From Ktedonobacterales bacterium (lineage in GTDB: Bacteria > Chloroflexota > Ktedonobacteria > Ktedonobacterales > JADMIN01), in assembly GCA_030167145.1 (NCBI GenBank), contig CP126532.1, positions 2,250,001-2,282,000 on the forward strand: DNA of 32,000 nt, written 5' to 3'. A program made the translations under genes and the position numbers. The notes beneath the pieces were generated by a model. The model saw nothing but the letters and a program-made list of their open reading frames with translations, searched no databases and had not been told where the DNA came from. This document shows, piece after piece, positions 11,296 through 28,440 of the stretch (position 1 is its first letter; the number at the start of each line of letters is the position of its first letter).

Positions 11296-11568
11296 CGTGT
11301 CGCTCCAAACTCACTGCGCCAGCAAGCGCGCCACGTGCATGCCTCTCATGCCAGAGCATACGGCATAGAGGATACCAGGATTTCATAGGAGCCGGATGAG
11401 AGTTCCGCGACGGCGCTATACCCCTGACTTGGGCTGTGGTAAAATCGCCGTGGTATGCGCGCGGCGATGCCGCTGCGTGCGACAAAGCGAAGTAGCGGAC
11501 GGAAAGGGGGATGGGGCCGGGTATACGCAGGTACGGGCATGAGCGCGGCTGGCTGGCCCCAGCTTGAT

Positions 11569-12063
11569 ATGGCAGAACAACGCAAGATTCGCGTGCTGGT
11601 GGCGAAGCCGGGCCTGGATGGGCACGACCGTGGGGCGAAGGTGATCGCGCGGGCGCTGCGTGACGCGGGCATGGAAGTGATCTACACCGGTATCCGCCAG
11701 ACGCCGCAAATGATTACCGAAGCGGCGATTCAGGAGGATGTGGACGCGATTCTGATGAGCATTCTCTCCGGCGCGCATATGGCCATCTTCCCCAAAGTGA
11801 TGGAACTCTTGCGCGAGAACGGTGTAGATGACGTGCTGGTGATGGCGGGCGGCATCATCCCCGATGAAGATATTCCGGCCATCGAGGCGATGGGCATCCA
11901 GGGCAACTTTGGCCCTGGCACGCCGATGAGCGCGATCATTGAGTACGTGCGCGCGCATGTCCACTCCGACCGGTTGAGCCAGCAACTCGCGCCGATGAGC
12001 ACGGCGGGCACGGCTATCGAAACACCGGGCACGGGCGATGCGGCGGGGCAGGCGGCGCAGTAG
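11569..12063 (+). CDS. Methylmalonyl-CoA mutase-type cobalamin (B12)-binding small subunit/domain protein
   Basis: ORF 11455..12063. The conserved part starts [41 protein letters not shown] (the DxHxxG B12-binding motif). An alternative start at 11539 cannot be excluded. Confidence 0.85.
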
Positions 12064-12064
12064 C

Positions 12065-13048
12065 ATGGCAGCGACCACATACCTCCCTATTGTCGAGCGG
12101 CTGCTCGCGGGCGACCGGCGGGCGCTGGCGCGGGTCGTCACCCTGATCGAGAACAACGCGCCGGACACACGGCGCATTCTGGCGCAGTTGCACGCCCACG
12201 GCGGACGCGCGCACGTCGTCGGTTTCACCGGCTCGCCAGGGGCGGGCAAGAGCACGCTCGTCACGGCGACGGCGCGCGAGTTGCGCAAGCGCGGCCAGCG
12301 CGTGGGCATCGTGGCGATTGACCCCAGCAGCCCCTTCACCGGCGGCGCGATTCTAGGCGACCGCATCCGCATGATGGAACTGGCCGGTGACCCCAACGTT
12401 TTCATACGCAGCATGGCTAGCCGGGGCAGTCTGGGCGGGCTTGCCGTGGCGACGCGCGATGTGGTGCGCGCGCTGGACGCGGGCGGCTTCGATACGATCA
12501 TCATCGAGACGGTGGGCGCGGGACAGGCCGAGGTGGAGATCGTGCGCGCGGCGCAGACCGTCGTCGTGGTGACGGTTCCCGGCATGGGCGACGACATCCA
12601 GGCGATCAAGGCGGGCATCCTCGAAATCGCCGATGTTTTCGTGGTCAACAAGGCGGACCGCCCCGGAGCGGACCAGACGGCGGCGGAGTTGCGGATGCTG
12701 ATGAGCCTGGACGAGCGCCGGAAAGAGCGCGGCTGGCGCGTGCCCATCGTCAAGACCAGCGCAGCCAGCGGCGAGGGCGTGCCAGAGCTGGTGGATAAGC
12801 TGGCGGAACATATCGCGTGGCTGCGCGAGAGCGGCCAGCTTGCCAGCCGTAGCGGACGCCAGGCGCGCAGCGAGATGCTGGCGCTGCTGCATCAGGCGCT
12901 TCTGGCGAAGATCGAGGCGACGGTCAGCCCCGACGAGTGGCAGCAGTTGATAGACGAAGTAGTAGACCGCCAGCGCGACCCGTACACCGCCGCCGATGAG
13001 ATTGCCCGCCGCATCGGCCTTGCCCCGTCGCTGGGCGGGTGGGAGTGA
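12065..13048 (+). CDS. meaB: MeaB/ArgK-type G3E GTPase (methylmalonyl-CoA mutase chaperone)
   Basis: ORF 12038..13048 trimmed to the ATG at 12065, 1 nt after the upstream TAG. P-loop GSPGAGKSTL, IIETVGAGQAEVEI, VVNKADR. Confidence 0.9.
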   Translation: MAATTYLPIVERLLAGDRRALARVVTLIENNAPDTRRILAQLHAHGGRAHVVGFTGSPGAGKSTLVTATARELRKRGQRVGIVAIDPSSPFTGGAILGDRIRMMELAGDPNVFIRSMASRGSLGGLAVATRDVVRALDAGGFDTIIIETVGAGQAEVEIVRAAQTVVVVTVPGMGDDIQAIKAGILEIADVFVVNKADRPGADQTAAELRMLMSLDERRKERGWRVPIVKTSAASGEGVPELVDKLAEHIAWLRESGQLASRSGRQARSEMLALLHQALLAKIEATVSPDEWQQLIDEVVDRQRDPYTAADEIARRIGLAPSLGGWE

Positions 13049-15158: not shown

Positions 15159-16331
15159 ATGGCACAGGTGAGCATATCGCGGGAGGAACGCGGCGACATC
15201 CCCGCCACGCCAACGGTGGTCGCACGGCGCACCAGCCAGCGCACCCGCGCCGTCATCTTCGGCGTGCTGGCGGCGGCGGCGCTGGTGCTGCTGATCGCGA
15301 TTGGCTCGCGCGGCTTCCACTGGTTCGACGCGGCGCTGATCGGCTATGCCGTTGCCTCCGTCTTCGCGGTCGCCGCCGTCACCTACAAATACACGTTCTG
15401 GCTGATGCGCCCGCAGACGGGGCGCTACTTCTGGCGTAGCTGGCGGCTCTTCTTCTCGTTCGCGAACTTCCGCCGCTATGCCGCGCTGATTCCCACCGCC
15501 ATCTTCACCGACCTGCTCACGCAGCAATTTATTCGCCGCCGCGCCACCTATCGTTGGGTCACGCACCAGCTTATTTTCTGGGGCGTCGTACTCTCCTGCG
15601 CCATCACCTTCCCGCTCACCTTCGGCTGGCTGCGCTTCACACAGACCACCACTGGCGAGTATCATCTCTGGGTCTTCGGCTTCCAGTTCTTCATCTTTGG
15701 CCCGAACTCCATCCTGGGCTTCCTGATCTACCATGGGCTGGTCATCACTTCGATTCCGCTCTTCATCGGCCTGATTATGGCGTTCCACCGGCGCTTTCAC
15801 GATCTCGCGCTGATCGCCATCCAGCGGTTCCGTTTCGACCTGATGCCGCTAGCGCTGCTCTTCGCCATCGTCTTCACCGGGCTGGCGCTCACCGCAGATA
15901 GCACCTTCTTCGGCGGCGCGTATTACTGGTTCATCTCACTCACGCACGAGGCCGTGGTTGTCTTCTGGCTGATCTCGCTGCCATTCGGCAAGTTTTTCCA
16001 TATCCTCGAGCGGCCCGCTACTGTGGGCATCGAACTCTACTGGCGCACTGGCGAGGATAGCGAACAGCACACCTGCCCGCGCTGCGGCGAGCCATTTGCG
16101 CCGGAACGCTTCATCCGCGACCTGAAGCGCACGACGTATGACATCGGCCAGAACTACGCCGTCACCCCCGCCGCTTCGCAACTGCCCGCTGGTACGCCGC
16201 GTGAGAGCATCCCGCGCGAGCGCGCCGCCAGCGCTATCTGGTGGCAGGATTTCTGCCCAGACTGCAAACGCATCATGCGCGCCGAGGCCAACCTCGCCGC
16301 GCTGGGCCGCGACGGTAATCAATTCTTGTAG
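15159..16331 (+). CDS. Polytopic membrane protein, NarI/DsrM/TcuB-like (putative di-heme quinol-interacting subunit) with a C-terminal CxxC...CxxC zinc-ribbon-like tail
   Basis: 390 aa with GGAGGGAGG upstream and about 7-8 TM helices. Conserved His residues lie in helices (WVTHQLIFWG, LIYHGL, ISLTHEA). The LPFGKFFHILERP motif resembles the PF(S/G)K..H signature of the nitrate-reductase-gamma-like family. Tail: HTCPRCGE...DFCPDCKR. Family call is from memory only. Confidence 0.5.
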   Translation: MAQVSISREERGDIPATPTVVARRTSQRTRAVIFGVLAAAALVLLIAIGSRGFHWFDAALIGYAVASVFAVAAVTYKYTFWLMRPQTGRYFWRSWRLFFSFANFRRYAALIPTAIFTDLLTQQFIRRRATYRWVTHQLIFWGVVLSCAITFPLTFGWLRFTQTTTGEYHLWVFGFQFFIFGPNSILGFLIYHGLVITSIPLFIGLIMAFHRRFHDLALIAIQRFRFDLMPLALLFAIVFTGLALTADSTFFGGAYYWFISLTHEAVVVFWLISLPFGKFFHILERPATVGIELYWRTGEDSEQHTCPRCGEPFAPERFIRDLKRTTYDIGQNYAVTPAASQLPAGTPRESIPRERAASAIWWQDFCPDCKRIMRAEANLAALGRDGNQFL

Positions 16332-16384
16332 ATTGATAAATAGATTGACGAACCGCCTACATCGCCAGGAAGGCCAGGATTCCC

Positions 16385-18679
16385 ATGAGTGTAGATAAGG
16401 GGCTTTTCAACCCACGCCAGACCGATACCTATGATTTCTACGAGGGCAAGCCGGCGCCGTGGAACTCCGAGGAGGAGATCGAGCGCCTGGTGCCGACGCA
16501 TTGCTGCTATTGCGGCGTGCAGTGCGGTATGTATCTCAAGGTCGCGAAGGGTAAGGTCGTCGGCGTAGAGCCGCGCTATGACTTCCCGCTGAATCACGGC
16601 ATGCTCTGCCCCAAAGGCACCACCGCGTACCAGACCGTCAACCATCCCGACCGGCTGACCTATCCGCTAATGCGCCGCAACGGCAAGAACAGCCCGCTGG
16701 AGCGCGCAAGCTGGGATGAGGCGCTCGACACCATCGCGCGGCGCTTCCGCGAGATCCAGGGGCAGCATGGCGCGGATGCTGTCGCGGTGTATAGCGGCTC
16801 TTCGATGACCAACGAGAAATGCTACCTGATGGGCAAGTTCGCCCGTGTGGGGCTGGGCACGCGCCACTGCGACTACAACGGGCGGTTGTGCATGTCTTCG
16901 GCTACCGGCGCGAATGACCGCTCGCTGGGCATTGACCGCGCCGCCAACCCCATCAGCGATATGCTGCACTCGGACGTGATCTTCGTCATCGGCGCGAATG
17001 TCGGCGAATGCTTCCCCATCGTCACCAGCTATCTCTGGCAGGCGCGCGACCGGGGCGCGAAGCTGATCGTCGCCGATCCGCGCCAGACGCCCATCGCCCG
17101 CACCGCCGACGTCTTCCTGCCGCTGCGCTCCGGCACGGACTCGGCGCTGCTCAATAGTATGCTCTACGTGCTGATCACCGAGAATCTGGTGGATGAGGAT
17201 TTCATCGGCGCGCGCACCAACGGCTGGGAAGAAACCAAAGCTGAGGCGCTGAAGTATCCGCCAGAGCGCGCGGCCAAGGTCTGCGGACTGAAGCCGGAGA
17301 CGATCATCGAAGCGGCGCGGCTCTACGGGCAAGCCAATGCGGCGATGATCTACACGGCGCGCGGCCTGGAACACCAGAGCAAAGGTGTAGATAACGGCGT
17401 GGCCTGCGCGAACCTGGCACTGGCGACTGGCAACTTTGGCAGGCCGGGCGCGGGCTATATGACGCTGACCGGCCAGGGCAACGGTCAGGGCGGACGCGAG
17501 ATGGGCCAGAAGGCATCGCAACTGCCGGGCGAGCGCGAGATCGAAGATCCCGAAGACCGCGAATATATCGCCTCGATCTGGGGCATCGAAGAGGTGGACC
17601 TGCCACATGCGGGCTACCCCGCGACGCTGATGATTCCGGCAATGGAGCGCGAGGAGATACGCGCCTGCCTGATGATCTGCTCGAATCCGATGGTCTCGCT
17701 ACCCGATCAACATACGGTGGAGCGGGCGCTGCGCGGGCTGGATCTGTTCGTGGTGATAGACTTCTTCCTTTCTGAGACGTGCGAGCTGGCCGACATTGTG
17801 CTGCCGGGCAATGTCTGGGCCGAAGATGAGGGAACCACCACCAGCCTCGAAGGGCGCGTCATCAAATACAACCAGGCCGTTGAGCCACCTGGCGAGGCCC
17901 GGCGTGACTGGGAGATCATTGGCGATCTGGCGAAGCGGCTGGGCAAGGGGCAGTATTTTCCCTACACCTCGGCGCGCGACATCTTCGACGAGATGCGCCT
18001 GGCGACCAAGGGCGCGAAAGCCGACTACTTCGGCATCACCTACGAGAAGATCGAGGAGCAGAACGGCGTCTTCTGGCCCTGCCCCACGCCCGAAAGCACT
18101 GGCACACCGCGGCTCTACGAAGAACGCTTCGGCTTCCCAGATGGCAAGGCGCGCTTCCACCCCATTCCGTACATCCCGCCCGCTGAGGAGCCGGACGAGG
18201 AGTATCCGCTGGTGCTGACCACGGGACGAGTGATCTATCACTATCTCTCTGGCAACCAGACGCGCCGCACGCCGTTCTTGCTGGAACAGGCGCCCTGCCC
18301 CTGGGTGGAGTTGCACACGACCATGGCGCAGAAGCTCGGTATCAATGATGGCGATTGGGTGACGGTGCGCACACGGCGTGGTGAGATGACCGTGCCCGCG
18401 CTGGTGGTGCGCTCGATCCGGCCCGATACGCTGTTCATCCCGTATCACTACGGGCATACGCAGGCGGCGAACATCCTGACCAATCCGGTGCTGGAGCCGA
18501 TGAACAAGATTCCCGAATACAAGGTCTGCGCGGCCTCGGCGGTGCGGGCGGAGCGTGCGCCAGACTGGGCGAAAGATCTCGACCCGGAGTTGCTGAAGCA
18601 AGCGCGGCGCAGCCGTAAGACGCTGCCCAGCGCGGGGGCGAACGTGGGACCGCGCGTGCCGGGAGTTCCAGGCGCGTAG
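16385..18679 (+). CDS. Molybdopterin (bis-MGD) oxidoreductase catalytic subunit, Nap/Nas (nitrate-reductase)-like, no Tat signal
   Basis: 764 aa. N-terminal 4Fe-4S motif HCCYCGVQCG...LCPKG (Cx2Cx3Cx~27C). Probable Mo-ligand segment YNGRLCMSSATGA, resembling the R.CMAS motif of Nap/Nas enzymes. C-terminal molydop-binding barrel (GDWVTVRTRRGEMTVPALV). No twin-arginine motif at the N-terminus. Confidence 0.85.
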   Translation: MSVDKGLFNPRQTDTYDFYEGKPAPWNSEEEIERLVPTHCCYCGVQCGMYLKVAKGKVVGVEPRYDFPLNHGMLCPKGTTAYQTVNHPDRLTYPLMRRNGKNSPLERASWDEALDTIARRFREIQGQHGADAVAVYSGSSMTNEKCYLMGKFARVGLGTRHCDYNGRLCMSSATGANDRSLGIDRAANPISDMLHSDVIFVIGANVGECFPIVTSYLWQARDRGAKLIVADPRQTPIARTADVFLPLRSGTDSALLNSMLYVLITENLVDEDFIGARTNGWEETKAEALKYPPERAAKVCGLKPETIIEAARLYGQANAAMIYTARGLEHQSKGVDNGVACANLALATGNFGRPGAGYMTLTGQGNGQGGREMGQKASQLPGEREIEDPEDREYIASIWGIEEVDLPHAGYPATLMIPAMEREEIRACLMICSNPMVSLPDQHTVERALRGLDLFVVIDFFLSETCELADIVLPGNVWAEDEGTTTSLEGRVIKYNQAVEPPGEARRDWEIIGDLAKRLGKGQYFPYTSARDIFDEMRLATKGAKADYFGITYEKIEEQNGVFWPCPTPESTGTPRLYEERFGFPDGKARFHPIPYIPPAEEPDEEYPLVLTTGRVIYHYLSGNQTRRTPFLLEQAPCPWVELHTTMAQKLGINDGDWVTVRTRRGEMTVPALVVRSIRPDTLFIPYHYGHTQAANILTNPVLEPMNKIPEYKVCAASAVRAERAPDWAKDLDPELLKQARRSRKTLPSAGANVGPRVPGVPGA

Positions 18680-18772
18680 ACGCATGCGCGAGAGCGTCCA
18701 CCGGACGCATTGGCGTATGCTTGGAGACGGGCGTCCACCGGACGCCCCTACGGGGAGGTGGAAGTCTCACCT

Positions 18773-19579
18773 ATGGCGGTAAAACGCATCTTTCTCGATC
18801 CGTCGCGCTGCATCGGCTGCCGCTCATGCGTGGCCGCTTGCCGCGAGTGCGACACGCACAAGGGCGAGACGATGATCTTCATAGACTATCTGAATCGCGG
18901 CAACACGGTCGCCAGCTCGCCGACGCTCTGTATGCACTGCGAGGAGCCGCTGGCCCCGTGCGCGCAGGTCTGCCCGGCGCAGGCGATTCTGGTCAGCCCC
19001 GATGGCGTGGTGCATCAGGCGGACGAGACACGCTGTGTGAACATTCGCAACTGTGTCTACGTCTGCCCCTTCGGCGTGCCGAAATTTGATGGGCCAGGGC
19101 GCTATATGCGCAAGTGCAACCTCTGCTATGACCGCACCAGCATCGGCCTGCCACCGATGTGCGCTTCGGTCTGCCCGACGCAGGCGATCTTCTACGGCAC
19201 GTATGAGGAATGGATTCAGTCCGGGCGGGCGCAGCAGGGGGCAAAGCCGGTGAATGTCTTTTACTTCGGCAAGCAGCGCGTGCGCACGCGCAACTATGTG
19301 GTGATGCGCGAGGAGCAGGACGCGCTGGACCTGATGGCGCTGGCGGCGGAGGCGAGCCTGGGCAACCTCTCGACAACGCCCGCCGCGACCGCCGATGGTG
19401 AGGTTGAGCCGTGGGTGGAGGCTGATAGCGCAGGCATTCCAGAGCGCATGGCGCCGCCACAGCCCTGGGCGCCGCGCACTCCAGCGCCGCTGCCCGCACC
19501 CGTCGCCCCACCTGCCCCCGCGCCCGCGCCCGAACGCGAGCCAGCCCCCGTCGGACCAGAGCCAGTCCCTGTACCATAG
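18773..19579 (+). CDS. 4Fe-4S ferredoxin-type electron-transfer subunit (DmsB/NrfC-like, four Cys clusters) with a Pro/Ala-rich C-terminal tail
   Basis: ORF 18710..19579 trimmed to the ATG at 18773 (GGGGAGGTGGAAG upstream). Clusters: CIGCRSCVAACREC, CMHCEEPLAPCAQVCP, CVNIRNCVYVCPFG, CNLCYDR...PPMCASVCP. Tail: PQPWAPRTPAPLPAPVAPPAPAPAPEREPAPVGPEPVPVP. Confidence 0.85.
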   Translation: MAVKRIFLDPSRCIGCRSCVAACRECDTHKGETMIFIDYLNRGNTVASSPTLCMHCEEPLAPCAQVCPAQAILVSPDGVVHQADETRCVNIRNCVYVCPFGVPKFDGPGRYMRKCNLCYDRTSIGLPPMCASVCPTQAIFYGTYEEWIQSGRAQQGAKPVNVFYFGKQRVRTRNYVVMREEQDALDLMALAAEASLGNLSTTPAATADGEVEPWVEADSAGIPERMAPPQPWAPRTPAPLPAPVAPPAPAPAPEREPAPVGPEPVPVP

Positions 19580-19626
19580 CTGTGTGTAGGGGCGTGCGGC
19601 ATGCGCCCACGGAGGAATGCAAGACG

Positions 19627-20205
19627 ATGGATGATGAATATCTCGACAATGCGGCGGTATCCGACACGACTGCTGCCTCGGACGCGGGCAAGCCAGCCGG
19701 CGCGGCGGAATCTCAGCCGCCGCAGCATCAGGAGTGGCGCGAAGAGTTCCCGTACCACTGGCGCGCGGACGATCTGGTGACACGGCGCGATACATTGCGC
19801 TTCCTGGTGGCGGGGAGCGGCGCGCTCTTCATCGCCACTGCTGGCCTCGCGCTGGTTGGCGCGGTGCGCCCGGATGCCACCGCACAGCGTGTCGCGGTGG
19901 CGCGGGTGGGTGAACTGGCCGTCAACGAGGCGCGGGTCTTCGACTTCCCCGACCAGTATGGCCAGGGCATTCTGGTGAATCTGCCGGGCAAAGGGCTGGT
20001 GGCGTACAGTGACGTCTGCACACATCTCTCGTGCGCCGTGCTGTACCAGGCTGACCAGCGCAAGTTTCACTGCCCCTGCCACGAAGGCTACTTCGATGCC
20101 TTTACCGGCGAGCCACTTGCAGGGCCACCGGTGCGCCCGCTGCCGCTGATCGAGTTACAGATCGAAGACGGCATGATCTATGCCGTGCGGGAGGTAGAGC
20201 GATGA
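19627..20205 (+). CDS. Rieske [2Fe-2S] protein with a twin-arginine motif and N-terminal membrane anchor
   Basis: ORF 19582..20205 trimmed to the ATG at 19627 (GGAGGA 10 nt upstream). TRRDTLRFLVAGSGALFIATAGLALVG is Tat-like RR plus a hydrophobic helix. Rieske boxes CTHLSC and CPCHEG are 17 residues apart. Confidence 0.85.
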   Translation: MDDEYLDNAAVSDTTAASDAGKPAGAAESQPPQHQEWREEFPYHWRADDLVTRRDTLRFLVAGSGALFIATAGLALVGAVRPDATAQRVAVARVGELAVNEARVFDFPDQYGQGILVNLPGKGLVAYSDVCTHLSCAVLYQADQRKFHCPCHEGYFDAFTGEPLAGPPVRPLPLIELQIEDGMIYAVREVER

Positions 20206-20555
20206 GCGTGGATACCAGTGGAATGGACAATGCGAGCCGCGACGCTAGCACTCAGGCTGAGGTCAGGCGGGTCGCCAACCCGGACGATCCGCCCGTCCCA
20301 CCGCGACGCAGCACCTACGCTACGGCGGCGAGCGAATCCAGCGGCGCGCCAGGGCGAGTGGCCATCGTGCAGGGGCAGGTCTACATTGTCGGCGCGATCC
20401 TCATCGCGCAACTCTTTCTCTGTACAACGGCGCTCTTCGAGCTACTCTCCGGCAATAAGGATGTCCTCTGGGGCATCGCGGCGGCCAGCCTGGGCGGTTT
20501 CCTCGTCGCGCTGCTGGTGACGCTGTGGCCGCGCCGCCGCAGCAAGGGCTATTGA
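20202..20555 (+). CDS. Small two-TM membrane protein, translationally coupled to the Rieske gene
   Basis: The ATGA overlap at 20202-20205 joins its start to the Rieske stop, with GGGAGG 7 nt upstream. 117 aa with two hydrophobic helices (VYIVGAILIAQLFLCTTALF, IAAASLGGFLVALLVTLW). No family recognised. Confidence 0.55.
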   Translation: MSVDTSGMDNASRDASTQAEVRRVANPDDPPVPPRRSTYATAASESSGAPGRVAIVQGQVYIVGAILIAQLFLCTTALFELLSGNKDVLWGIAAASLGGFLVALLVTLWPRRRSKGY

Positions 20556-20683
20556 AGGCTATTGATCGGAGCGCACCCGTGGCCGAGAACGAGCGAAACG
20601 ACGAGACTGATAAATCGCCCGCGCCGCCTCCCGGTGAGGGCTATCGCTACCGAATTGACCGCGAGCACCCCATCGGCGGCGAG

Positions 20684-21307
20684 ATGTCGGATGTGCTGCG
20701 CGGCATCTTCGTGCGCCTGCGCCTACCGTGGCTCTTGCGCCACTACTCACAGACACCTGTGCTGGCGATCTTCTCGTTCCTGAATGGTGTGCTTAGCATC
20801 GGCATCATGTCGGTGCTGGCGGTCATCACCGGCTCGCCCTTCATCTTCCCGTCGCTTGGCCCGACGGCGTTTCTCTTCTTCTATACTCCCACTGCGCCGA
20901 CTGCCTCGCCGCGCAACACTATCTGCGGCCATCTGATCGGCGTGCTCGCCGGCTACTTCGCCTTGGTGGTCACCGGGCTGACCAACGCTGGCCCCGCGCT
21001 GGCTACCGGCGTCACCTGGCCGCGCGTGATCGCCGCCGCGCTCTCGCTGGGCCTCACCGCCGGGCTGATGGTGCTGCTCAAGGTGCCGCATCCGCCCGCT
21101 GGCGCGACCACGCTGATCATCTCGCTCGGCATCCTGACCCATTTTTCTCAATTGGTCATCCTGATGGCCGCCGTGGTACTGCTGACGGTGCAGGCATTCG
21201 TCATCAACCGACTTGCGGGTATAGATTACCCGCTGTGGAGTCCACGACAGGCGTCGGCATCAGGGGCAGCGGCATCCAGCGCGAGCACTATGCGCCTGCG
21301 CTCGTGA
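20684..21307 (+). CDS. HPP-family membrane protein (family that includes nitrite transporters)
   Basis: ORF 20525..21307. The eponymous motif LKVPHPPAGATTLI is present, with four hydrophobic helices. The start is set to the ATG at 20684 (MSDVLRGIF) because the upstream 53 codons overlap the previous gene and are hydrophilic. The start remains uncertain. Confidence 0.75.
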   Translation: MSDVLRGIFVRLRLPWLLRHYSQTPVLAIFSFLNGVLSIGIMSVLAVITGSPFIFPSLGPTAFLFFYTPTAPTASPRNTICGHLIGVLAGYFALVVTGLTNAGPALATGVTWPRVIAAALSLGLTAGLMVLLKVPHPPAGATTLIISLGILTHFSQLVILMAAVVLLTVQAFVINRLAGIDYPLWSPRQASASGAAASSASTMRLRS

Positions 21308-21358: not shown

Positions 21359-21670
21359 ATGAACTATACGATAGAACTATCTGAGCACGCCGAACGTGTC
21401 ATCGCTGCGGTAGCAGCTTTGCACGGCGTGACTCCTGATGAGTATATCCAGCAGTTTATCACGGCTTGGGCTGCCGAACTCACCACAGATGAAGAACTCG
21501 ATCCTGAACAGGCATGGTTTTGGGCGCCGGAGTGGCAGGCAGGTGAGCGCAAAGCGGATGCGGATTATGCTACGGGTCGCACCACACACTACGACAGCGA
21601 TGAGGCGTTTCTGAAGGCGTTGGAGGAACATATCAGCGACGCCACTGAGACTCCTGATGCCGACTCGTGA
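21359..21670 (+). CDS. Putative type II antitoxin (RHH-like N-terminus, acidic C-terminus)
   Basis: 103 aa with GAGGTGATGAG upstream and lower GC than its flanks. It overlaps the downstream toxin-like gene by 14 nt. The N-terminal beta-strand/helix pattern YTIELSEHAERVIAAVAALHGVTPDEYI is RHH-like. Confidence 0.55.
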   Translation: MNYTIELSEHAERVIAAVAALHGVTPDEYIQQFITAWAAELTTDEELDPEQAWFWAPEWQAGERKADADYATGRTTHYDSDEAFLKALEEHISDATETPDADS

Positions 21671-21950
21671 GATTCTTGATACGTTCTGGAAGGACTGGAG
21701 CAAGCTCACTCCCGCGCAGCGGAGCCTCTTTCTGGACGCGGTACGCCAATTCGTTGATGATCTGAAACGTGGCCAGGGATTTCGTGGCGGGCTGCGAGTA
21801 AAAGGTGTACAAGGTCATCGTGGTGTTTATGAAATGACCTGGGCTCCCGTTGGCCGCGCGACCTTCGCATATGGAACATCACCGCAAGCTGGTGATGTGC
21901 ATATCATCTGGCGACGCATTGGCGATCATAGCATTTTCAAGAATCCCTAG
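21657..21950 (+). CDS. RelE/ParE-superfamily toxin-like protein
   Basis: 97 aa. The LRVKGVQGHRGVYEMTWAPVGRATFAYG....GDVHIIWRRIGDHSIFKNP pattern matches my memory of RelE/ParE-family toxins. It is paired with and overlaps the upstream small gene. Confidence 0.6.
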   Translation: MPTREILDTFWKDWSKLTPAQRSLFLDAVRQFVDDLKRGQGFRGGLRVKGVQGHRGVYEMTWAPVGRATFAYGTSPQAGDVHIIWRRIGDHSIFKNP

Positions 21951-22936: not shown

Positions 22937-23158
22937 TTACACGCCCACGAATGCGCGGGGTTGCGGTAAAGGCCAGCCATGCTCTTGCGCAATCTCGACC
23001 CACTCCGCAATCAGCCGTTGCTCTTCTTCCCCCGCTGCCGTATAGGTATCCGCATGTGCGCGTGCGCCAGGCAATTCGGGGATGGTCACAATGAAAATAT
23101 CATCTTCATCTGACCATTCGATCACCATGGAATAATGTGCCTGACTCATATCACCCAT
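22937..23158 (-). CDS. Short HicB-like (UPF0150) antitoxin-family protein lacking a DNA-binding domain
   Basis: 73 aa. YSMVIEWSDEDDIFIVTIPELPGARAHADTYTAAGEE....IAEWVEIAQEHGWPLPQP fits the HicB N-terminal domain pattern. Its ATG overlaps the stop of the upstream DUF488 gene (ATGGGTGA). Confidence 0.65.
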   Translation of the reverse strand: MGDMSQAHYSMVIEWSDEDDIFIVTIPELPGARAHADTYTAAGEEEQRLIAEWVEIAQEHGWPLPQPRAFVGV

Positions 23159-23525
23159 TCGCCAGCAGTTCGCGCAGCACCGTCGCGTTCGCGTGTGCGG
23201 TGTCGTGCGCGGCGAAGACCAGCGTCACCTGACCCTCTGTGGCCAGTGTACGCAGGCGCGCCAGCGCCGATGCCCCTGGCTCCTCGGCCAGTTCGGCTTC
23301 GTAGCGGCGGCGGAACTCTGGGTATTTCTCTGGGTCGTGGCCGTACCAGGTGCGTAGCTCGGCACTGGGCGCGACATCTTTCAGCCAGAGGTCCACCTTT
23401 GCGCGTTCCTTCGAGATGCCGCGCGGCCAGAGCCGGTCCACCAGTACGCGCGTGCCGTCCTCCGGCTCCGCTGGCTCATACGCACGCTTGATCTTTACCG
23501 CAATCGCCGCATTTTGCTTCGCCAT
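23151..23525 (-). CDS. DUF488 (YeaO-like) family protein
   Basis: 124 aa. IKRAYEPAEPEDGTRVLVDRLWPRGISKERAKVDLWLKDVAPSAELRTWYGHDPEKYPEFRRRY is the characteristic DUF488 pattern. Confidence 0.75.
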   Translation of the reverse strand: MAKQNAAIAVKIKRAYEPAEPEDGTRVLVDRLWPRGISKERAKVDLWLKDVAPSAELRTWYGHDPEKYPEFRRRYEAELAEEPGASALARLRTLATEGQVTLVFAAHDTAHANATVLRELLANG

Positions 23526-23719: not shown

Positions 23720-24781
23720 ATGAACAGCATAGAAGCGATATGCGCGGGAATTGGGCCGCTGGATAGCGCGGCCATAGCCCAGGCCGAGGCGCGGCAGCAG
23801 CAATTGACGAAGCCAGCGGGGAGCCTGGGGCGGCTGGAAGAACTGGCGATCCAGATCGCGGGTATCACCGGCAATCCAGTGCCGAGCGTGGAGCGCAATG
23901 CGGTGATCGTCATGGCCGCCGATCATGGCGTCGTGGCTGAGGGCGTCAGCGCCTATCCCGCCGAGGTCACGCCGCAGATGGTCCTCAACTTTCTGCGTGG
24001 CGGCGCGGCGATCAACGCGTTGGCAGGGCAGGTGGGCGCGCGGGTCGTGGTCGTGGATATTGGCGTCGCGAGCGCTATCGAGCATCCGCAACTCGTCTCG
24101 CGCAAGATCGCGCACGGCACGGAGAACATGGCGGCTGGTCCGGCGATGACCCGTGAGCAGGCGCACGCCGCCATCCAGGTCGGGCTGGATGTGGTGGAAG
24201 CCGAAGTTGCGCGCGGGCTGGATCTGGTGGCCATCGGCGAGATGGGCATCGGCAACACCACCGCCGCCAGCGCTATCGTCGCGGCCTTCACCGGCGCGCC
24301 CGCCGCCAGCGTCACCGGCCACGGCACGGGCATCGGCGAGGAGCAACGCGCGCACAAAATCGCGGTGATCGAGCGTGCTCTGGCATGCAACGCACCGGAC
24401 CCGCAGGACGCGCTGGACGTGCTGGCGAAGGTCGGCGGCCTCGAAATCGCGGGGCTGTCGGGTGTGGTGTTAGGCGCTGCCGCGCGGCGCGTGCCGGTAG
24501 TGATAGATGGTCTGATCGCCAGCGCCGCCGCGCTGGTCGCCGCCGAACTCTGCCCCGCCGTGAAGCCGTATCTCATCGCGGGGCATGCCTCGGTGGAACG
24601 CGGGCATCGGCTGATCCTCGAACGGCTGGGGCTGCGGCCGCTGCTGGACCTGGATTTGCGGCTGGGCGAGGGGACGGGCGCGGCGCTGGCGATGGGCGTC
24701 ATCGCGGCGGCGGTGCGCGCGCACCGCGAGATGGCTACTTTCGGCGAGGCGGGCGTCAGCGAGCGCGACGAAACCGATTAG
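23720..24781 (+). CDS. cobT: Nicotinate-nucleotide--dimethylbenzimidazole phosphoribosyltransferase
   Basis: 353 aa. LTKPAGSLGRLEELAIQIAG, VMAADHGV, GEMGIGNTTAASA and LRLGEGTGAALA are all hallmark CobT segments. Confidence 0.9.
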   Translation: MNSIEAICAGIGPLDSAAIAQAEARQQQLTKPAGSLGRLEELAIQIAGITGNPVPSVERNAVIVMAADHGVVAEGVSAYPAEVTPQMVLNFLRGGAAINALAGQVGARVVVVDIGVASAIEHPQLVSRKIAHGTENMAAGPAMTREQAHAAIQVGLDVVEAEVARGLDLVAIGEMGIGNTTAASAIVAAFTGAPAASVTGHGTGIGEEQRAHKIAVIERALACNAPDPQDALDVLAKVGGLEIAGLSGVVLGAAARRVPVVIDGLIASAAALVAAELCPAVKPYLIAGHASVERGHRLILERLGLRPLLDLDLRLGEGTGAALAMGVIAAAVRAHREMATFGEAGVSERDETD

Positions 24782-24818
24782 CTGGTATCACGCGTCGTCA
24801 TCGGCGAAATCACGCGCC

Positions 24819-25511
24819 TCACTCATTGGCGTCGAATCCAAGTTGACGCGCTGCTGACTCTTCCCATGCGCGGGCTAGCGCCTTCAGTTCTACAGGCAGC
24901 CCCGCTAACATGAACAGCACGGCGTCCGCCTCGCGCGCCAGCCGCGCATTGGCGCGCCCCAGCAGATCACGGTAGACGCGACCGAGCGGATATGGCGGCA
25001 CCAACCCCATGCCCACCTCATTCGAGACGAGGATCAGCGAAGCTGGTAGTTGGCGGTAGGCCGCGAGCAGGTCTGCGATAGCCCGCTGAACCCGCGTGTC
25101 GGCCACGGCCGCATCGAATCGCTCTTCATCCATCTCGTGACCCGCGCTATCCAGCAACAGATTCGAGACGAGGAGTGTCACACAATCGAGCAGCACGACG
25201 CCTGCCGAAGCGGCGCGCGCATCGTCTAGCAGCGCGTGCGCGGGATCGAGCGGCGCTTCGAGCGTGATCCAGTCCGCTGGGCGCTCAGCGCGGTGGCGTG
25301 TGATGCGCTGACGCATCTCGTCGTCGTCCGCCGTCGCCGTGGCAACATATGCGACCATTCTGCCCTGCGCCATCTGCCCCGCCAGCCGCTCCGCATAGGC
25401 GCTTTTGCCGCTGCGCGCGCCACCGAGAATGAGCACCAGCCGCTTCGGACGCATGCCATGCGCCCCTACTAGTCCACCCATCCCCTCGCGCGCATCGTCT
25501 GGTTCGCTCAT
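24819..25511 (-). CDS. cobU: Bifunctional adenosylcobinamide kinase / adenosylcobinamide-phosphate guanylyltransferase
   Basis: 230 aa with GAGGAGGG 5 nt upstream of the ATG at 25511. P-loop LILGGARSGKSAYAERLA, YVATATADDDEMRQRITRHRAERPADWITLE, VSNEVGMGLVP. Confidence 0.85.
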   Translation of the reverse strand: MSEPDDAREGMGGLVGAHGMRPKRLVLILGGARSGKSAYAERLAGQMAQGRMVAYVATATADDDEMRQRITRHRAERPADWITLEAPLDPAHALLDDARAASAGVVLLDCVTLLVSNLLLDSAGHEMDEERFDAAVADTRVQRAIADLLAAYRQLPASLILVSNEVGMGLVPPYPLGRVYRDLLGRANARLAREADAVLFMLAGLPVELKALARAWEESAARQLGFDANE

Positions 25512-25566
25512 CGTGCCCTCCTCTCTGTGCCGCTGCCCATATAGCGTATACTACCGCCAGAATGGG

Positions 25567-26130
25567 ATGCGCAGACGAATGGGGAGGAGTGCGATAGCGG
25601 TGACGGTGGAGGAGATCGAGGCGTATGTCGCACCGAACTACGCGGCGAAGGACGAGATGCACAATCTGGCGCACATCCGGCGCGTGTATGCCCTGGCGGA
25701 AGAGATTGGCGGTCATCATCCACATGACACGGAGCTGCTGATGCTGGGCGCGTATTTGCACGGTATCATCTATGATGAAGGGCGAGAAGACGACATACGG
25801 CGCTTCCTTCAGAATGCACACCTCACGCCCGAACGCATCGAGCAGGCTATCCAAATTGCGTGGGAATCTCAGAAAGAGGGCGTGCCCGATATGATAGAAG
25901 GGCGATTGCTGCATGACGCACACCTGCTCGAAGGCGGCAAAACGTTCATCATCGTCAAATCGTTGGTGACGGGAACGGCGCGCGGGCAAACGCTGGCGGC
26001 GACGATTCGCTATATCGAAGAGCGTGTGCTGGGTCAGTTCGCGTGCTCGCTGCCAGAGGCGCAACGGCTATATGCGGAAAAAGAGCGCTGTGCAAGAGAG
26101 TTCCTCGCCGACCTGAAGCGCCATCTTTAG
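25567..26130 (+). CDS. HD-domain-like putative phosphohydrolase
   Basis: ORF 25405..26130. The upstream part lies antisense to cobU, so the start is moved to ATG 25567 (alternatives: ATG 25579 or GTG 25600 after GGGGAGGAG). His/Asp pattern HNLAHIRRV...YLHGIIYD...LLHDAHLLE suggests an HD-type metal site. It ends 9 nt before cobS. Confidence 0.5.
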   Translation: MRRRMGRSAIAVTVEEIEAYVAPNYAAKDEMHNLAHIRRVYALAEEIGGHHPHDTELLMLGAYLHGIIYDEGREDDIRRFLQNAHLTPERIEQAIQIAWESQKEGVPDMIEGRLLHDAHLLEGGKTFIIVKSLVTGTARGQTLAATIRYIEERVLGQFACSLPEAQRLYAEKERCAREFLADLKRHL

Positions 26131-26139
26131 GTAGCTACC

Positions 26140-27018
26140 ATGAATCACAACGGTCCCAATCACACGCCAGCGCACGACAAGCTCCACCCGCAAAGGCGCG
26201 GCGGCCCCTTCGACGGGCTGGCGCTTGCGCTGCAATTCCTGATGATCTTGCCGGTGCGCTCCAAGCGGGCGAATACTACGCTGGATGGGCCGCCGGAGAT
26301 GGCTGCCGCGCTGCCGTGGTTTCCGGTGGTCGGCGCGCTGCTGGGGGGACTGCTGGCGCTGACCGATTGGGCGCTCACGCCGCTCTTTGCCGCGAATGTG
26401 CGCAATGTGGCGCTGCTGGCGCTGGCGGCGCTGCTGACAGGCATGCTGCATCTCGACGGCTTCATTGATTGCTGTGATGGGCTGCTTGGCACACGCACCA
26501 TCGAACGTCGGCTGGAGATTCTGCGCGACAGCCGCGTGGGCGCATACGGCGTGATCGGCGGCGTGCTGCTGGTGCTGGCCCAGTTCGCCGCGCTGGGCGC
26601 GCTGCCCGCAAGCATGCGCCTCTTCGCGTTGGTCGCCGCGCTGCTGCTGGGCCGCTGGGCGATGGTCTACGCGGTGGTGGCGTATCCCTATGCGCGTGCG
26701 ACTGGCGCGGGGGCGGGCTTCCATGCGGGCGGGCGGCATCTGGCGCTGGCGACGCTGGCGACGCTGGCGACGCTGGCGCTGCTGGCGAGCGCATCGCTCT
26801 TGCTCCCTGGCGGATGGTGGACTCCCTCGCACTTCGCGCTGGCGGGCGCGGTCGCGCTGGTTGCGCTGGTTGTCGCGCTGGGGTGGGCGCGCTGGGCCAG
26901 CCACCGGCTCGGAGGCGGTCTGACCGGCGACACCTACGGCGCGCTGAACGAACTGGTGACGCTGGCTGTGCTGGCGCTCCTGCCACCGCTGGCGCACCTG
27001 CTCGTGCGCCTCGCCTGA
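26140..27018 (+). CDS. cobS: Adenosylcobinamide-GDP ribazoletransferase (cobalamin synthase)
   Basis: 292 aa polytopic ORF. N-terminal LALALQFLMILPV, central LHLDGFIDCCDGL and C-terminal GGLTGDTYGALNEL match the CobS/CobV signature segments. Confidence 0.85.
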   Translation: MNHNGPNHTPAHDKLHPQRRGGPFDGLALALQFLMILPVRSKRANTTLDGPPEMAAALPWFPVVGALLGGLLALTDWALTPLFAANVRNVALLALAALLTGMLHLDGFIDCCDGLLGTRTIERRLEILRDSRVGAYGVIGGVLLVLAQFAALGALPASMRLFALVAALLLGRWAMVYAVVAYPYARATGAGAGFHAGGRHLALATLATLATLALLASASLLLPGGWWTPSHFALAGAVALVALVVALGWARWASHRLGGGLTGDTYGALNELVTLAVLALLPPLAHLLVRLA

Positions 27019-27486: not shown

Positions 27487-28440
27487 ATGGAGGGTACAGT
27501 GCAAGTTTCCAACCGCATTCTACTCAGGCTTTCGCTTGCGTTGTTTGTTGTGTCAAGTGCTGTGATCTTTGGCGTAGTTAGCCAGGGATTCACTTCTGCA
27601 CCTCATGCTTTTGCTTGTTGTAGCGGCTCCTTTTATGGTGGTGATACCACGAAAGTAGATAATGCGACCCAATCCATTTTTCCGCAATTGCAGGGTGCGT
27701 ATTGCGGCATCACGGATGCTATGGCGGTTACAAACTATGCTGACGAGGACAAAGGCGTAAGTATGGTCTTTACGTCGCAAAATCAGCAGAAGACCGTCGC
27801 GAGCGATAACAAGAATGTCGGTGCGGCAAGTCAATGGGGAGGGGAAGGCAATGCTTATGCGGGAGTGACCAATATATCCGGGGATTTTGGAACAGATCCG
27901 CGATCAGAAGCATATATGTCATACCACTATACTCCAATCGGCTACTATTACCACAACTTTATCTATCGCTGGCAATTTGTACACAGTTCCGCCCCGTCTC
28001 ACAGTCAGCAAGTGCTTGAGGCGACTAGTCTCATGGGACATCAGTTGGTCAACTGGCACGAACCGCTCATTGTGGCCGTTAACGAGGGCTTGCACTTCCT
28101 GTTGGTCACTGGCGTGTACTCAACCAATGATCCTTTCACTTTCTTTCCAGCCGGTATAACGGGACTCACATATCGTGATCCTCAGGATGCCACTCATCAC
28201 ACTGTATCCATCAGTGACTGGACAAATGGTATTTCAGGGGGCTATGACCTGTGGAAATACACCTATGGGAACCCGAATGACCCAGACCCAAACATAGGGC
28301 CTTATACTCCTGGTCCTGGGCAAGAGCATTGGTCAGGCGGGTTCGACTGGATTTCGCGAGATGCGAATACCACGGGCAACCAGTGGAGTCCTGATTGGGC
28401 CTTCAATGCCTACAACAACGCACAGTTGACCACGCCGTAA
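27487..28440 (+). CDS. Signal-anchored/secreted protein with a C39-like (papain-fold) cysteine-peptidase-type motif arrangement
   Basis: 317 aa with markedly lower GC than the flanking genes. N-terminal hydrophobic helix LLRLSLALFVVSSAVIFGVV. Candidate catalytic arrangement: Q(L)QGAYCGITDAMAVTNY ... PLIVAVNEGLHFLLVTGVYS ... GLTYRDPQD, i.e. the Q..C / H / D order seen in the Peptidase_C39-like family. An alternative start is GTG 27499, just after GGAGGG. Confidence 0.55.
   Translation: MEGTVQVSNRILLRLSLALFVVSSAVIFGVVSQGFTSAPHAFACCSGSFYGGDTTKVDNATQSIFPQLQGAYCGITDAMAVTNYADEDKGVSMVFTSQNQQKTVASDNKNVGAASQWGGEGNAYAGVTNISGDFGTDPRSEAYMSYHYTPIGYYYHNFIYRWQFVHSSAPSHSQQVLEATSLMGHQLVNWHEPLIVAVNEGLHFLLVTGVYSTNDPFTFFPAGITGLTYRDPQDATHHTVSISDWTNGISGGYDLWKYTYGNPNDPDPNIGPYTPGPGQEHWSGGFDWISRDANTTGNQWSPDWAFNAYNNAQLTTP

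Follow-up and report, generated by a model that had tools for sequence, protein, structure and literature searches.

What kind of enzyme is formed when a molybdenum subunit related to nitrate reductases is encoded together with a membrane protein, a ferredoxin and a Rieske protein, and on which side of the membrane does it act? This question is raised by a cluster of six closely packed open reading frames (ORFs) located between positions 15159 and 21307 on the + strand of a 32,000-nt stretch of DNA from a Ktedonobacterales bacterium (contig CP126532.1, positions 2,250,001 to 2,282,000), which in its full length is referred to as the window. An initial annotation, made from the sequence of the window, had described the cluster as an atypical molybdenum-enzyme operon that combines features of several known systems. 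Our analysis has settled the identity of its parts and their linkage: the first five ORFs encode a NarI-like membrane subunit, a catalytic subunit of the NasC type that belongs to the molybdenum-bis(pyranopterin guanine dinucleotide) (Mo-bisPGD) enzymes, a four-cluster ferredoxin, a Rieske protein and a small protein related to DUF6755, and the sixth a membrane protein of the HPP family (Table 1). As to how these parts function together, we propose, at a probability of about 0.55, that the five core genes encode a single membrane-bound quinol:nitrate oxidoreductase, in which a catalytic half of the Nas/FdhF-HycB type is integrated into a layout resembling NarGHI.

The same arrangement is found far beyond this genome. 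A scan of 1.84 billion representative proteins (E ≤ 1e-3, with clusters defined at 50% identity) delineated a family of the membrane protein that consists of 919 clusters, and a scan for loci, restricted to one genome per species, recovered at least 588, the best 80 of which were analysed. The gene-order counts rest on the 61 loci with enough downstream sequence. Since the genes of the NarI-like protein, the Mo subunit, the ferredoxin and the Rieske protein are kept in this order in 60 of these 61, the arrangement is well past chance, and the synteny survey suggested along with the initial annotation thus reveals a conserved module rather than a local oddity. In 57/61 loci, an iterative search located the start of a DUF6755-type gene within 400 nt of the stop codon of the Rieske gene, and the corresponding matches in the other four sit on over-extended ORFs. 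The sole exception in gene order, found in a metagenome-assembled genome (MAG) of the Dehalococcoidia (L021, 9935-13368), contains the NarI-like and Mo genes alone, with neither the ferredoxin nor the Rieske gene after them, and may be a degenerate or rearranged variant. The related loci span at least nine phyla, including Chloroflexota, Acidobacteriota, Actinomycetota, Gemmatimonadota, Deinococcota, Planctomycetota, Myxococcota, Cyanobacteriota (Obscuribacterales) and Pseudomonadota, to which Brevibacillus has to be added. Among the hosts are Ktedonobacteria, Phycisphaerales, Polyangiaceae, Obscuribacterales, a sphingomonad MAG and Deinococcus, and a collection of plasmids adds Deinococcus megaplasmids and Brevibacillus laterosporus as carriers of the cluster. 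Besides the latter, the culturable hosts comprise Deinococcus wulumuqiensis, the acidobacterium Pyrinomonas methylaliphatogenes K22, Thermogemmatispora aurantia, Dictyobacter kobayashii and Ktedonosporobacter rubrisoli. In D. wulumuqiensis, the names assigned by the Prokaryotic Genome Annotation Pipeline (PGAP) are generic ('molybdopterin oxidoreductase family protein', '4Fe-4S dicluster domain-containing protein', 'Rieske 2Fe-2S domain-containing protein', 'DUF6755 family protein' and 'nitrate/nitrite transporter') and the complex therefore carries no functional name. The NarI-like cytochrome itself is misnamed in public records as 'MFS transporter' (L082, 6820-7932, on plasmid pDrdI of D. 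wulumuqiensis; P0013; P0035), where it contains no domain of the major facilitator superfamily (MFS). This label was probably carried over from relatives with a fused NarK-type MFS protein.

The likely substrate is reflected in the properties of the catalytic subunit. As described in the initial annotation, this protein contains the motif C-x2-C-x3-C...C of the [4Fe-4S] cluster FS0, which reads HCCYCGVQCG...C, and the segment GRLCMSS, in which Cys 169 as part of DYNGRLCMSSA is the predicted Mo ligand. Both regions align with the Nas proteins of Paenibacillus, Deinococcus grandis, Roseibium and Tsukamurella and with NapA. In line with the missing Tat signal noted at the same time, the protein has no signal peptide, and not one of 66 relatives contains a real motif for twin-arginine translocation (Tat). 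In NCBIfam, the protein scores 811.5 bits against the NasC equivalog, below its cut-off of 1100, and 670 bits against the broad model of the formate dehydrogenase (FDH) alpha subunit (TIGR01591), just above the cut-off of 666, compared to 75.6 bits for narG (cut-off 1084), 272-281 bits for the NapA models (cut-offs >900) and 164.6 bits for the arsenite oxidase model arsenite_ox_L (cut-off 359). It shares 45% of identical residues with Paenibacillus NasC, 41% with D. grandis NasA and 27% with AioA. Its closest solved structures are FDHs, and no Nas chain is found among the structural matches. All cluster-linked Mo subunits share the sequence DYNGRLCM(S/V)SA and thus a Cys-Met pair as in Nas and Nap, whereas the reference FDHs contain (Cys/Sec)-His instead, or Cys-Gln in the ForC type.

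For the phylogenetic placement, Nas references were validated by their context, as in case of Paenibacillus NasC (by nirB and narK) and D. grandis NasA (by nirBD and narK), besides Nas from Tsukamurella and Roseibium, and they were complemented by NapA from E. coli and Paracoccus, four FDHs and AioA as outgroup. In the resulting tree, calculated by neighbour-joining only from 679 columns and few references with 300 bootstraps, the cluster-linked Mo subunits including the one from Brevibacillus form their own clade (99.3% bootstrap), which is joined by Paenibacillus NasC and D. grandis NasA (95.3%), and the FDHs constitute a separate group (86%). This placement beside NasC and NasA and outside the FDHs answers the phylogenetic check that had been proposed for the subunit. 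The Cys-Met motif, the clade in the tree and the lack of a Tat motif in relatives thus identify the protein, as far as its sequence can tell, as a nitrate reductase of Nas ancestry in a distinct, partner-specific subclade, and they strongly suggest nitrate as its substrate. The term 'assimilatory-type' used in the initial annotation consequently holds for the ancestry of the catalytic subunit and not for a demonstrated role, since linkage to a nitrite reductase is absent. Two other identities were rejected: that of an FDH, in light of the ligand motif and the separate clade, and that of an arsenite oxidase-like enzyme, on account of model scores and tree. The Mo subunits also share a conserved hydrophilic N-terminal extension of about 35-45 residues preceding FS0 (16385-16510 in the window), which reads MSVDK...YDF in Chloroflexota and MSKVENL...FGPHLHD in Acidobacteriota. 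Together with an FPYxW motif of the Rieske protein described below, this extension may mediate contacts between subunits.

The membrane subunit would provide the connection to the quinol pool. No Pfam or NCBIfam family matches the window protein and its relatives weakly touch Pfam Nitrate_red_gam and the models of QmoC and TcuB. When searched against the sequences of the PDB, a profile of 37 diverse relatives identified E. coli NarI (1q16_C, E=3e-4), and in an alignment with hhalign the similarity extends over NarI helices III-V with a probability of 94.2% (E=1e-7). A confident AlphaFold2 model of the subunit (predicted local distance difference test score 89.5, predicted template modelling (TM) score 0.85) was compared to known structures with Foldseek, where NarI chains alone reach probabilities of 0.97-1.0 at a target-normalised TM-score of about 0.5, with E values of about 0.1-0.4 that are non-significant; the TM-score to the cytochrome b of bc1 complexes is 0.23. 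The core of NarI consists of five helices and two haem sites with bis-His coordination, formed by the pairs His56/His205 and His66/His187. In the membrane subunit, His136, His263 and His281 are invariant and position 191 is semi-conserved as His or Asn. Two of these residues, His263 and His281, coincide in the alignment with the haem ligands His187 and His205 of NarI and show an identical 18-residue spacing (His-x17-His on helix V), and a PFGK(F/L)FH motif matches PFSRLIH of NarI. The invariant His136 resides at the cytoplasmic end of a helix that positionally matches NarI helix II, in a region that itself did not align, and the fourth NarI ligand, His66, has no counterpart at its position, which leaves His191 on the next helix as sole candidate. 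The NarI-like fold that had been assigned in the initial annotation is thus borne out by profile, alignment and two shared ligand positions. We accordingly describe the subunit as a predicted NarI-like cytochrome b with six transmembrane helices, an extra N-terminal one followed by the five helices of NarI, where we propose His191/His263 as ligands of a distal and His136/His281 as ligands of a proximal haem, so that either two haems or one may be bound.

The orientation of this protein can be predicted from two properties. On the one hand, its predicted inner loops contain 21 Lys and Arg residues compared to two on the outer loops. On the other hand, a NarK-family MFS protein is fused to the N terminus of the membrane subunit in several lineages (P0128 and P0161, matching TIGR00886 with 232-234 bits). 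Since NarK-type MFS proteins span the membrane with 12 helices and have both termini on the cytoplasmic side, these fusions would place the N terminus of the NarI-like module, and six helices further on its C terminus, on this side as well. The C-terminal domain is thus predicted to be cytoplasmic, and the outer face would expose a conserved motif, TFPL(T/V)FGW, in conjunction with a beta-sheet.

This C-terminal domain contains four cysteines (Cys306, Cys309, Cys366 and Cys369) in the arrangement C306-P-R-C309-GEPFA...C366-P-D-C369-KR, which are invariant or at least 90% conserved among the 37 relatives. The distance between CxxC and CPxC amounts to 30-36 residues in most relatives and to 56 in the window protein owing to an insertion. 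A region of E. coli HycF (7z0s_F, residues 115-165) was detected as its counterpart in a profile search (E=0.003) and in an alignment with hhalign (88%, E=3e-6), and the domain likewise shows the Arg and the PFA motif that adjoin the cysteine quartet of the HycF/HyfH extension. The 'zinc ribbon' recognized in the initial annotation is therefore present and can be described more closely as a probable remote homologue of the C-terminal metal-binding extension of HycF and HyfH, with metal binding predicted. In the structure of the formate hydrogenlyase (FHL) complex determined by cryo-electron microscopy, the HycF extension, with the motif CxxC-x34-CPxC, binds a single metal, tentatively assigned as iron, through Cys117, Cys120, Cys155 and Cys158, interacts with the poly-ferredoxin HycB and carries a basic patch opposite FdhF (PMC9474812). 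Because a ferredoxin of the HycB/FdnH type and an FdhF-related Mo subunit adjoin the Cys4 domain in the genome, we infer from this remote homology that the domain would serve as cytoplasmic dock for the dimer of both proteins. Such a dock is also our main argument for an active site that faces the cytoplasm, an orientation of the catalytic unit which we predict with moderate confidence.

The ferredoxin fits the proposed dock in its family relationships, with best matches in the PDB to FdnH (1e-19), NrfC (1e-16), HycB3 (5e-16) and HycB (2e-13), compared to a score of 35.5 bits against the narH model of NCBIfam, for which the cut-off is 524. In an alignment of 64 relatives the protein begins directly at the first cluster motif in every case and it carries neither a signal peptide nor a transmembrane helix. 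A variation concerns the third group of cysteines, which lacks the second Cys and reads C-x2-(I/A)-x2-C-x3-CP (residues ~97-108) in the window protein and in its three closest relatives (L003, L004, L024), with all other relatives retaining four cysteines. In NarH and in the DmsB-C102 variants, replacement of the second Cys of this group is associated with a [3Fe-4S] cluster, and the same cluster is thus probably bound by the window ferredoxin. The predicted site corresponds to the one oriented towards the membrane anchor in NarH and DmsB, and the change is limited to one Ktedonobacterial subclade. A Pro/Ala-rich tail (~19440-19579), to which the initial annotation had drawn attention, is present as described and has lost its significance as a lineage-specific feature: ferredoxins outside the Ktedonobacterales comprise about 207-220 residues, compared to 254-277 within this order, and the tail is probably unimportant.

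The Rieske protein displays a layout consisting of a cytoplasmic N-terminal segment with an FPYxW motif, the sequence TRRDTLRF, one transmembrane helix, the cluster-binding motif CTHLSC...CPCH and disulfide-forming cysteines. Its twin-arginine motif and subsequent helix had been singled out as the only ones of the operon, a finding that we could reproduce. The entire layout is shared by 62/62 relatives, in the general form FPYxW, (T/S)RR(D/E)(F/T)(L/C)xF, one helix, CTHL(S/A)C...CPCH(E/D)G and both disulfide cysteines. Best matches are the actinobacterial QcrA and AioB in NCBIfam and, in the PDB, the Rieske protein of the Thermus bc-complex (8e-16), followed by AioB (8e-13) in an alignment that spans the signal region; the model of the arsenite oxidase small subunit is matched with 52.7 bits at a cut-off of 95.65. 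Owing to the conserved motifs and these best matches, we predict a respiratory Rieske protein of the bc/AioB type, with its cluster domain on the outer face of the membrane. A soluble Rieske protein of the NasG/NirD type was considered and rejected in light of the Tat anchor, the disulfide cysteines and the best matches to bc-complexes and AioB. The extra subunit with two transmembrane helices listed in the initial annotation is likewise present and is probably of the DUF6755 type. Its score against Pfam DUF6755 (PF20540) amounts to 20.6 bits, which is under the cut-off of 27 bits, and an iterative search ties it to proteins that do pass, namely the one named 'DUF6755 family protein' by PGAP in D. 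wulumuqiensis and two neighbours at E=1e-15. Proteins of this type contain two helices, are basic at their ends and share the conserved motif QLW(L/I)L(T/S)A. The Rieske protein and the DUF6755-type subunit would be integral parts of the complex, in which the Rieske centre could act as first acceptor at the quinol site, as store that enables the two-electron oxidation of quinol or as entry point for external electrons.

In the mechanism that we favour, the NarI-like cytochrome b would oxidize menaquinol at its outer face, in proximity to the Rieske cluster and the TFPL(T/V)FGW motif, with protons released to the outside. Electrons would cross the membrane via the haem or haems coordinated by the candidate ligand pairs at the distal and the proximal site and subsequently reach the four-cluster ferredoxin, which, like the Mo subunit, would be docked on the HycF-like Cys4 domain in the cytoplasm. 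Passing FS0, they would arrive at the Mo centre, where cytoplasmic nitrate would be reduced to nitrite, which would leave the cell or be exchanged by the neighbouring carrier, HPP in this locus and TDT or NarK elsewhere. Such an arrangement would constitute an energy-conserving redox loop. Its physiological role is probably the generation of nitrite from quinol under oxygen limitation and possibly also for assimilation, and respiration, redox balancing and assimilation could each be served by a cytoplasmic quinol-driven enzyme.

Several points weigh against this proposal. The similarities on which it builds are remote (E=3e-4 for NarI, 3e-3 for HycF) and the E values obtained with Foldseek are non-significant. 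His191, the candidate ligand of the distal haem, is replaced by Asn in about 40% of the relatives. The Rieske centre is superfluous to a NarGHI-like loop and does not fit a plain Nar scheme, and the conservation of its Tat motif and disulfide cysteines implies that part of the complex is located outside. HPP, known as nitrite importer, would fit periplasmic reduction followed by uptake. Finally, co-transcription of the cluster genes is suggested by spacing alone, and a scan of the cluster for promoters and terminators found nothing that exceeds shuffled sequences.

The carriers encoded next to the core genes bear on both substrate and role. The adjacent HPP gene described in the initial annotation was recovered with 94.1 bits against Pfam TM_HPP (PF04982; cut-off 27.2), with transport of nitrite remaining a putative function. 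A single carrier gene directly follows the DUF6755-type gene in 36/55 loci, encoding an HPP protein in 15, a NarK-family MFS protein in 11 and a TDT/SLAC1-type protein in 10 cases; four further loci show NarK fused to the membrane subunit and one contains NarK immediately upstream, so that a carrier is adjacent or fused in 41/55. Most of the remaining loci contain an HPP, TDT or NarK gene within 3 kb. HPP is thus one of three interchangeable carriers. Since three unrelated anion carriers share one position, and one of them belongs to a nitrate/nitrite family, the transported species are likely to be nitrate and nitrite. The HPP proteins of cyanobacteria and chloroplasts are described as nitrite uptake carriers.

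Other recurrent neighbours are Crp/Fnr-family regulators, detected by phmmer in 13 loci and in several of them immediately upstream, besides Usp, hemerythrin-domain, DUF488 and YwiC-like proteins. Judged by the narK-fnr-ywiC-arfM-narGHJI region of Bacillus subtilis and by mycobacterial hypoxia regulons, such neighbours typically accompany nitrate respiration under oxygen limitation. The Brevibacillus cluster is immediately preceded by narK and a divergently oriented crp/fnr gene, a pair that resembles the narK-fnr locus of B. subtilis. The unannotated record of Brevibacillus laterosporus B9 (L083, 4642-11232) shows this succession in full, with narK and the divergent crp/fnr-like gene preceding the genes of the NarI-like protein, the Mo subunit, the ferredoxin and the Rieske protein, and this cultured member of the Bacillota would be well suited to genetic work. 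The Fnr/Crp and Usp neighbours weakly suggest, as circumstantial evidence, a use under hypoxia; none of these regulators is found near the Ktedonobacterial window locus. DUF488 genes recur near the cluster in Chloroflexota, with a copy in the window at 23151-23525 (- strand), 2 kb downstream, and with a location immediately upstream of the cluster in three relatives (L001, 9280-9642; L018, 8113-9225; L019, 8990-9502).

This neighbourhood also bears on whether the complex may instead be an alternative assimilatory nitrate reductase, regulated by nitrogen and feeding an unlinked NirBD or NirA, a role which would be compatible with the favoured mechanism and which we consider somewhat unlikely. 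The catalytic subunit is sister to true NasC and NasA, many aerobes are found among the host lineages, the Bacillus bataviensis genome contains NarGHJI besides a cluster nasC that is the only nasC found (PMC3475470) and Pyrinomonas was scored with genes for assimilatory nitrate reductase, nitrite reductase and NNP (PMC5900883). Against such a role stands the lack of convincing linkage to nirB or nirD, which were matched with only 30-137 bits in 5/81 loci, always at more than 1 kb from the core, whereas the genuine Nas genes of the reference loci adjoin nirB. Nor does any nitrite reductase family belong to the 25 Pfam families that occur most often in 108 neighbouring ORFs. The Fnr/Crp, Usp, hemerythrin and YwiC-like neighbours and the narK and fnr-like genes directly upstream in Brevibacillus speak against it as well, as does the fact that Deinococcus species hold a separate standard nasA-nirBD-narK locus.

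An opposite orientation of the catalytic unit appears unlikely. In such a scenario, the Mo subunit and the ferredoxin would acquire their fold in the cytoplasm, associate with the Rieske protein and be exported with it on its Tat signal, as AioA is on that of AioB, to form an outward-facing enzyme. The Rieske protein would then accept one quinol electron and transfer it to the ferredoxin and the Mo subunit, the NarI-like haems would form the low-potential branch of a Q-cycle-like process and the external nitrite would be imported by HPP, NarK or TDT for assimilation. This reading accounts for a conserved twin-arginine motif that is confined to the Rieske protein and whose similarity to AioB spans the signal region, and it is in line with the general description of HPP proteins as nitrite uptake carriers. 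It has precedents in arsenite oxidase and in haloarchaeal nitrate reductase loci with Rieske and cytochrome b genes, where a Q-cycle-like mechanism has reportedly been proposed for pNar with NarB and NarC, and Rieske and cytochrome b genes are also located within the nitrate reductase (Nap) locus of Caldithrix (PMC5317091). However, export would leave the cytoplasmic HycF-like domain without a partner, a NarI-type cytochrome is known to deliver electrons inward, and the fusion of NarK to the membrane subunit in several lineages is expected for an active site in the cytoplasm, where all characterized close relatives of the Mo subunit reside. Moreover, no Tat-proofreading chaperone of the NapD, TorD or NarJ type is found among the 25 most frequent neighbouring families, and no nitrite reductase is linked to the cluster.

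Operation in the oxidative direction or on another substrate (oxidation of nitrite with transfer to the Rieske protein, reduction of chlorate, selenate or iodate, or oxidation of formate) is highly improbable, since a Rieske protein of high-potential type on the outer face, typical of chains with cytochrome c or oxidases as their terminus (Aio, bc), the NarK-like carriers of nitrite oxidoreductase loci, the narrow pass of TIGR01591 and the FDHs as closest solved structures are opposed by an active site with Cys-Met as in Nas and Nap and without the His of FDHs, the separate FDH clade, the lack of a recurrent cytochrome c or cupredoxin partner among the frequent neighbour families, the Nar type of known nitrite oxidoreductases and host lineages that are not known as nitrite oxidizers.

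The coordinates of the cluster are compiled in Table 1. Re-reading of the sequence reproduced the tight gene spacing of the initial annotation, with intergenic distances of 53, 93 and 47 nt and, at the last junction, an ATGA overlap that translationally couples the DUF6755-type gene to the Rieske gene. Shine-Dalgarno-like GGAGG/AGGA motifs precede the chosen starts. The ATG of the ferredoxin at 18773 is preceded by the ribosome-binding site GGAGGTGGA, and its mechanically defined ORF begins at TTG 18710.

Table 1. Features of the gene cluster, with positions referring to the window.
Feature	Position	Strand	Basis of assignment
NarI-like membrane subunit, 390 aa	15159..16331	+	NarI homology; no match in Pfam/NCBIfam
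C-terminal cytoplasmic Cys4 domain of membrane subunit (predicted)	16056..16301	+	homology to HycF/HyfH extension
Catalytic Mo-bisPGD subunit, NasC-type, 764 aa	16385..18679	+	Pfam Molybdop_Fe4S4, Molybdopterin, Molydop_binding
Four-cluster ferredoxin (FdnH/NrfC/HycB family), 268 aa	18773..19579	+	Pfam Fer4_11 and others
Rieske [2Fe-2S] protein, bc/AioB type, 192 aa	19627..20205	+	Pfam Rieske
Small subunit with two transmembrane helices, DUF6755-type, 117 aa	20202..20555	+	weak match to Pfam DUF6755 and iterative search
HPP-family membrane protein, ≤260 aa, putative nitrite carrier	20525 (GTG, overlapping the preceding gene) or 20684 (ATG)..21307 (stop)	+	Pfam TM_HPP

Within the 93 nt that separate the Mo gene from the ferredoxin gene, a 15-bp exact direct repeat, GCGTCCACCGGACGC, occurs at 18694-18708 and 18731-18745. 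Its two copies, each with a small GTCC...GGAC inverted repeat, are found nowhere else in the window, and they could be an RNA processing element, an element of translational control or a remnant. Right after the HPP gene, two small overlapping ORFs on the + strand (21359-21950; 103 and 97 aa) show no match in Pfam and resemble a toxin-antitoxin pair in their layout. The flanks of the window contain unrelated genes encoding a Na+/H+ exchanger, MeaB, proteins of cobalamin salvage and an EamA transporter, with neither a nitrite reductase nor a nitrate transporter found among them. The best homologues come from Ktedonobacterales (Chloroflexota) and assign the window to this order. The cobalamin-related genes comprise a protein with a B12-binding domain and MeaB upstream (11455-13048) and members of the CobT, CobU and CobS families downstream (23720-27018), which show no evident connection to the nitrate reductase genes. 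The region between 27001 and 30000 is distinguished by a G+C fraction of 0.52-0.56, compared to 0.58-0.70 in the remainder of the window, and may be DNA of recent acquisition; two ORFs in this stretch (27487-28440 and 28504-29412) have no match in Pfam.

The proposed complex shares features with several known systems without coinciding with any of them. As in NarGHI, a b-type cytochrome of NarI fold is combined with a four-cluster iron-sulfur subunit and a Mo-bisPGD subunit that lacks an export signal, NarK carriers and Fnr-type regulators are linked, and the probable [3Fe-4S] cluster of the Ktedonobacterial lineage would correspond to FS4 of NarH. However, NarG is Asp-ligated and NarH contains about 500 residues, as opposed to the Cys-ligated NasC-type subunit and the short HycB/FdnH-type ferredoxin found here, only three of the four haem-ligand positions are conserved, NarJ is absent and an extra N-terminal helix, the HycF-like Cys4 domain, the Rieske protein and the DUF6755-type subunit are added. 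NasC, NasA and NarB are the closest catalytic relatives and share the FS0 and Cys-Met motifs, but these cytoplasmic enzymes are soluble, receive electrons from NADH via NasB or NirB or else from ferredoxin or flavodoxin, and are encoded with a nitrite reductase, whereas the cluster described here combines a subunit that misses the NasC cut-off with membrane proteins and shows no such linkage. Nap differs by the Tat signal of NapA and by its partners NapB, NapC and NapGH, and no nap accessory genes are present in the cluster. With the FHL module (FdhF, HycB and the HycF extension; PDB 7Z0S), the complex has in common an FdhF-like Mo subunit, a poly-ferredoxin resembling HycB and a CxxC-x(30-56)-CPxC domain for a single metal, which in FHL resides on a soluble NuoI-like subunit of a complex I-type hydrogenase and is here fused to a NarI-like cytochrome b, and the substrate is formate in FHL compared to presumably nitrate in the cluster.

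With respect to the Rieske protein, AioAB and IdrAB equally combine a Mo-bisPGD enzyme with a Tat-bearing Rieske protein of the bc type containing disulfide cysteines, but AioA provides no protein ligand to Mo, contains a [3Fe-4S] cluster and is exported with AioB, in a system without membrane cytochrome or four-cluster ferredoxin. In haloarchaeal pNar with NarB and NarC and in the Nap of Caldithrix, a Rieske protein and a b-type cytochrome are encoded together with a nitrate reductase and coupling of quinol to nitrate has been proposed; there, the cytochrome b is of the bc1/b6f type and NarG or NapA are exported by Tat, in contrast to the NarI-type cytochrome and the missing export signal observed here. 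The bc1 and b6f complexes themselves share the Tat-anchored disulfide Rieske protein and differ by a cytochrome b of eight (or four plus three) transmembrane helices with a Qo site. It is possible, if still somewhat doubtful, that the cluster would encode a fourth prokaryotic nitrate reductase architecture besides Nar, Nap and Nas, an energy-conserving, quinol-dependent complex in which a hitherto unrecognized quinol-oxidizing membrane module consisting of NarI-type cytochrome b, bc-type Rieske protein and DUF6755-type subunit feeds a cytoplasmic catalytic unit of the NasC/HycB type that is docked on a HycF-like metal domain.

Part of this cluster has very probably been noticed before. In Bacillus bataviensis, and likewise in other bacilli, nasC was found to be linked to genes of an iron-sulfur protein and a Rieske protein, which was suggested to be an alternative assimilatory system (Heylen and Keltjens, 2012; PMC3475470). 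Judged by the published description, this linkage very probably represents a portion of the cluster analysed here, and the account, which mentions it in passing, describes neither the genes for the NarI-like protein, DUF6755 and the carrier nor the Tat anchor or the wide distribution. Two large phylogenetic studies of MopB/DMSOR enzymes treat NasC and NasA as purely assimilatory and cytoplasmic (PMC10100899). The initial annotation had left room for a characterized orthologous complex of the same composition, and none was found by full-text searches of a library that covers few subscription journals, so that an earlier characterization is possible. The same searches returned nothing on DUF6755 or on the combination of 'NarI-like', Rieske and nitrate. 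We found no characterized precedent in which cytochrome b of the NarI type is paired with a Rieske protein of the bc type, and the complex is widespread and uncharacterized.

Collectively, these results concern a capability that current classifications may conceal. Surveys of the nitrogen cycle classify by catalytic subunit, and this one is filed as nasA/nasC or as 'molybdopterin oxidoreductase'. If the complex draws its electrons from quinol and operates under hypoxia, the extent to which abundant soil phyla release nitrite and reduce nitrate in a dissimilatory manner would be underestimated, and a hidden dissimilatory capacity to convert nitrate to nitrite would exist in the aerobic soil phyla Acidobacteriota, Chloroflexota, Actinomycetota, Gemmatimonadota, Deinococcota and some Bacillota. 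In a survey of Acidobacteria, in which Pyrinomonas was scored with assimilatory nitrate reductase genes, some strains reduce nitrate to nitrite without a recognized dissimilatory enzyme and with nasA only (Eichorst et al., 2018; PMC5900883). Assuming that these strains contain the cluster, it could explain this activity in the absence of Nar and Nap (PMC5900883). The pairing of a NarI-type cytochrome with a Rieske protein bears on the evolution and recombination of quinol-oxidizing modules, and the HycF-like domain may represent a docking device that is portable among enzymes of the FdhF/Nas type. With a large family that is present in culturable hosts, the question of what this complex does is directly testable.

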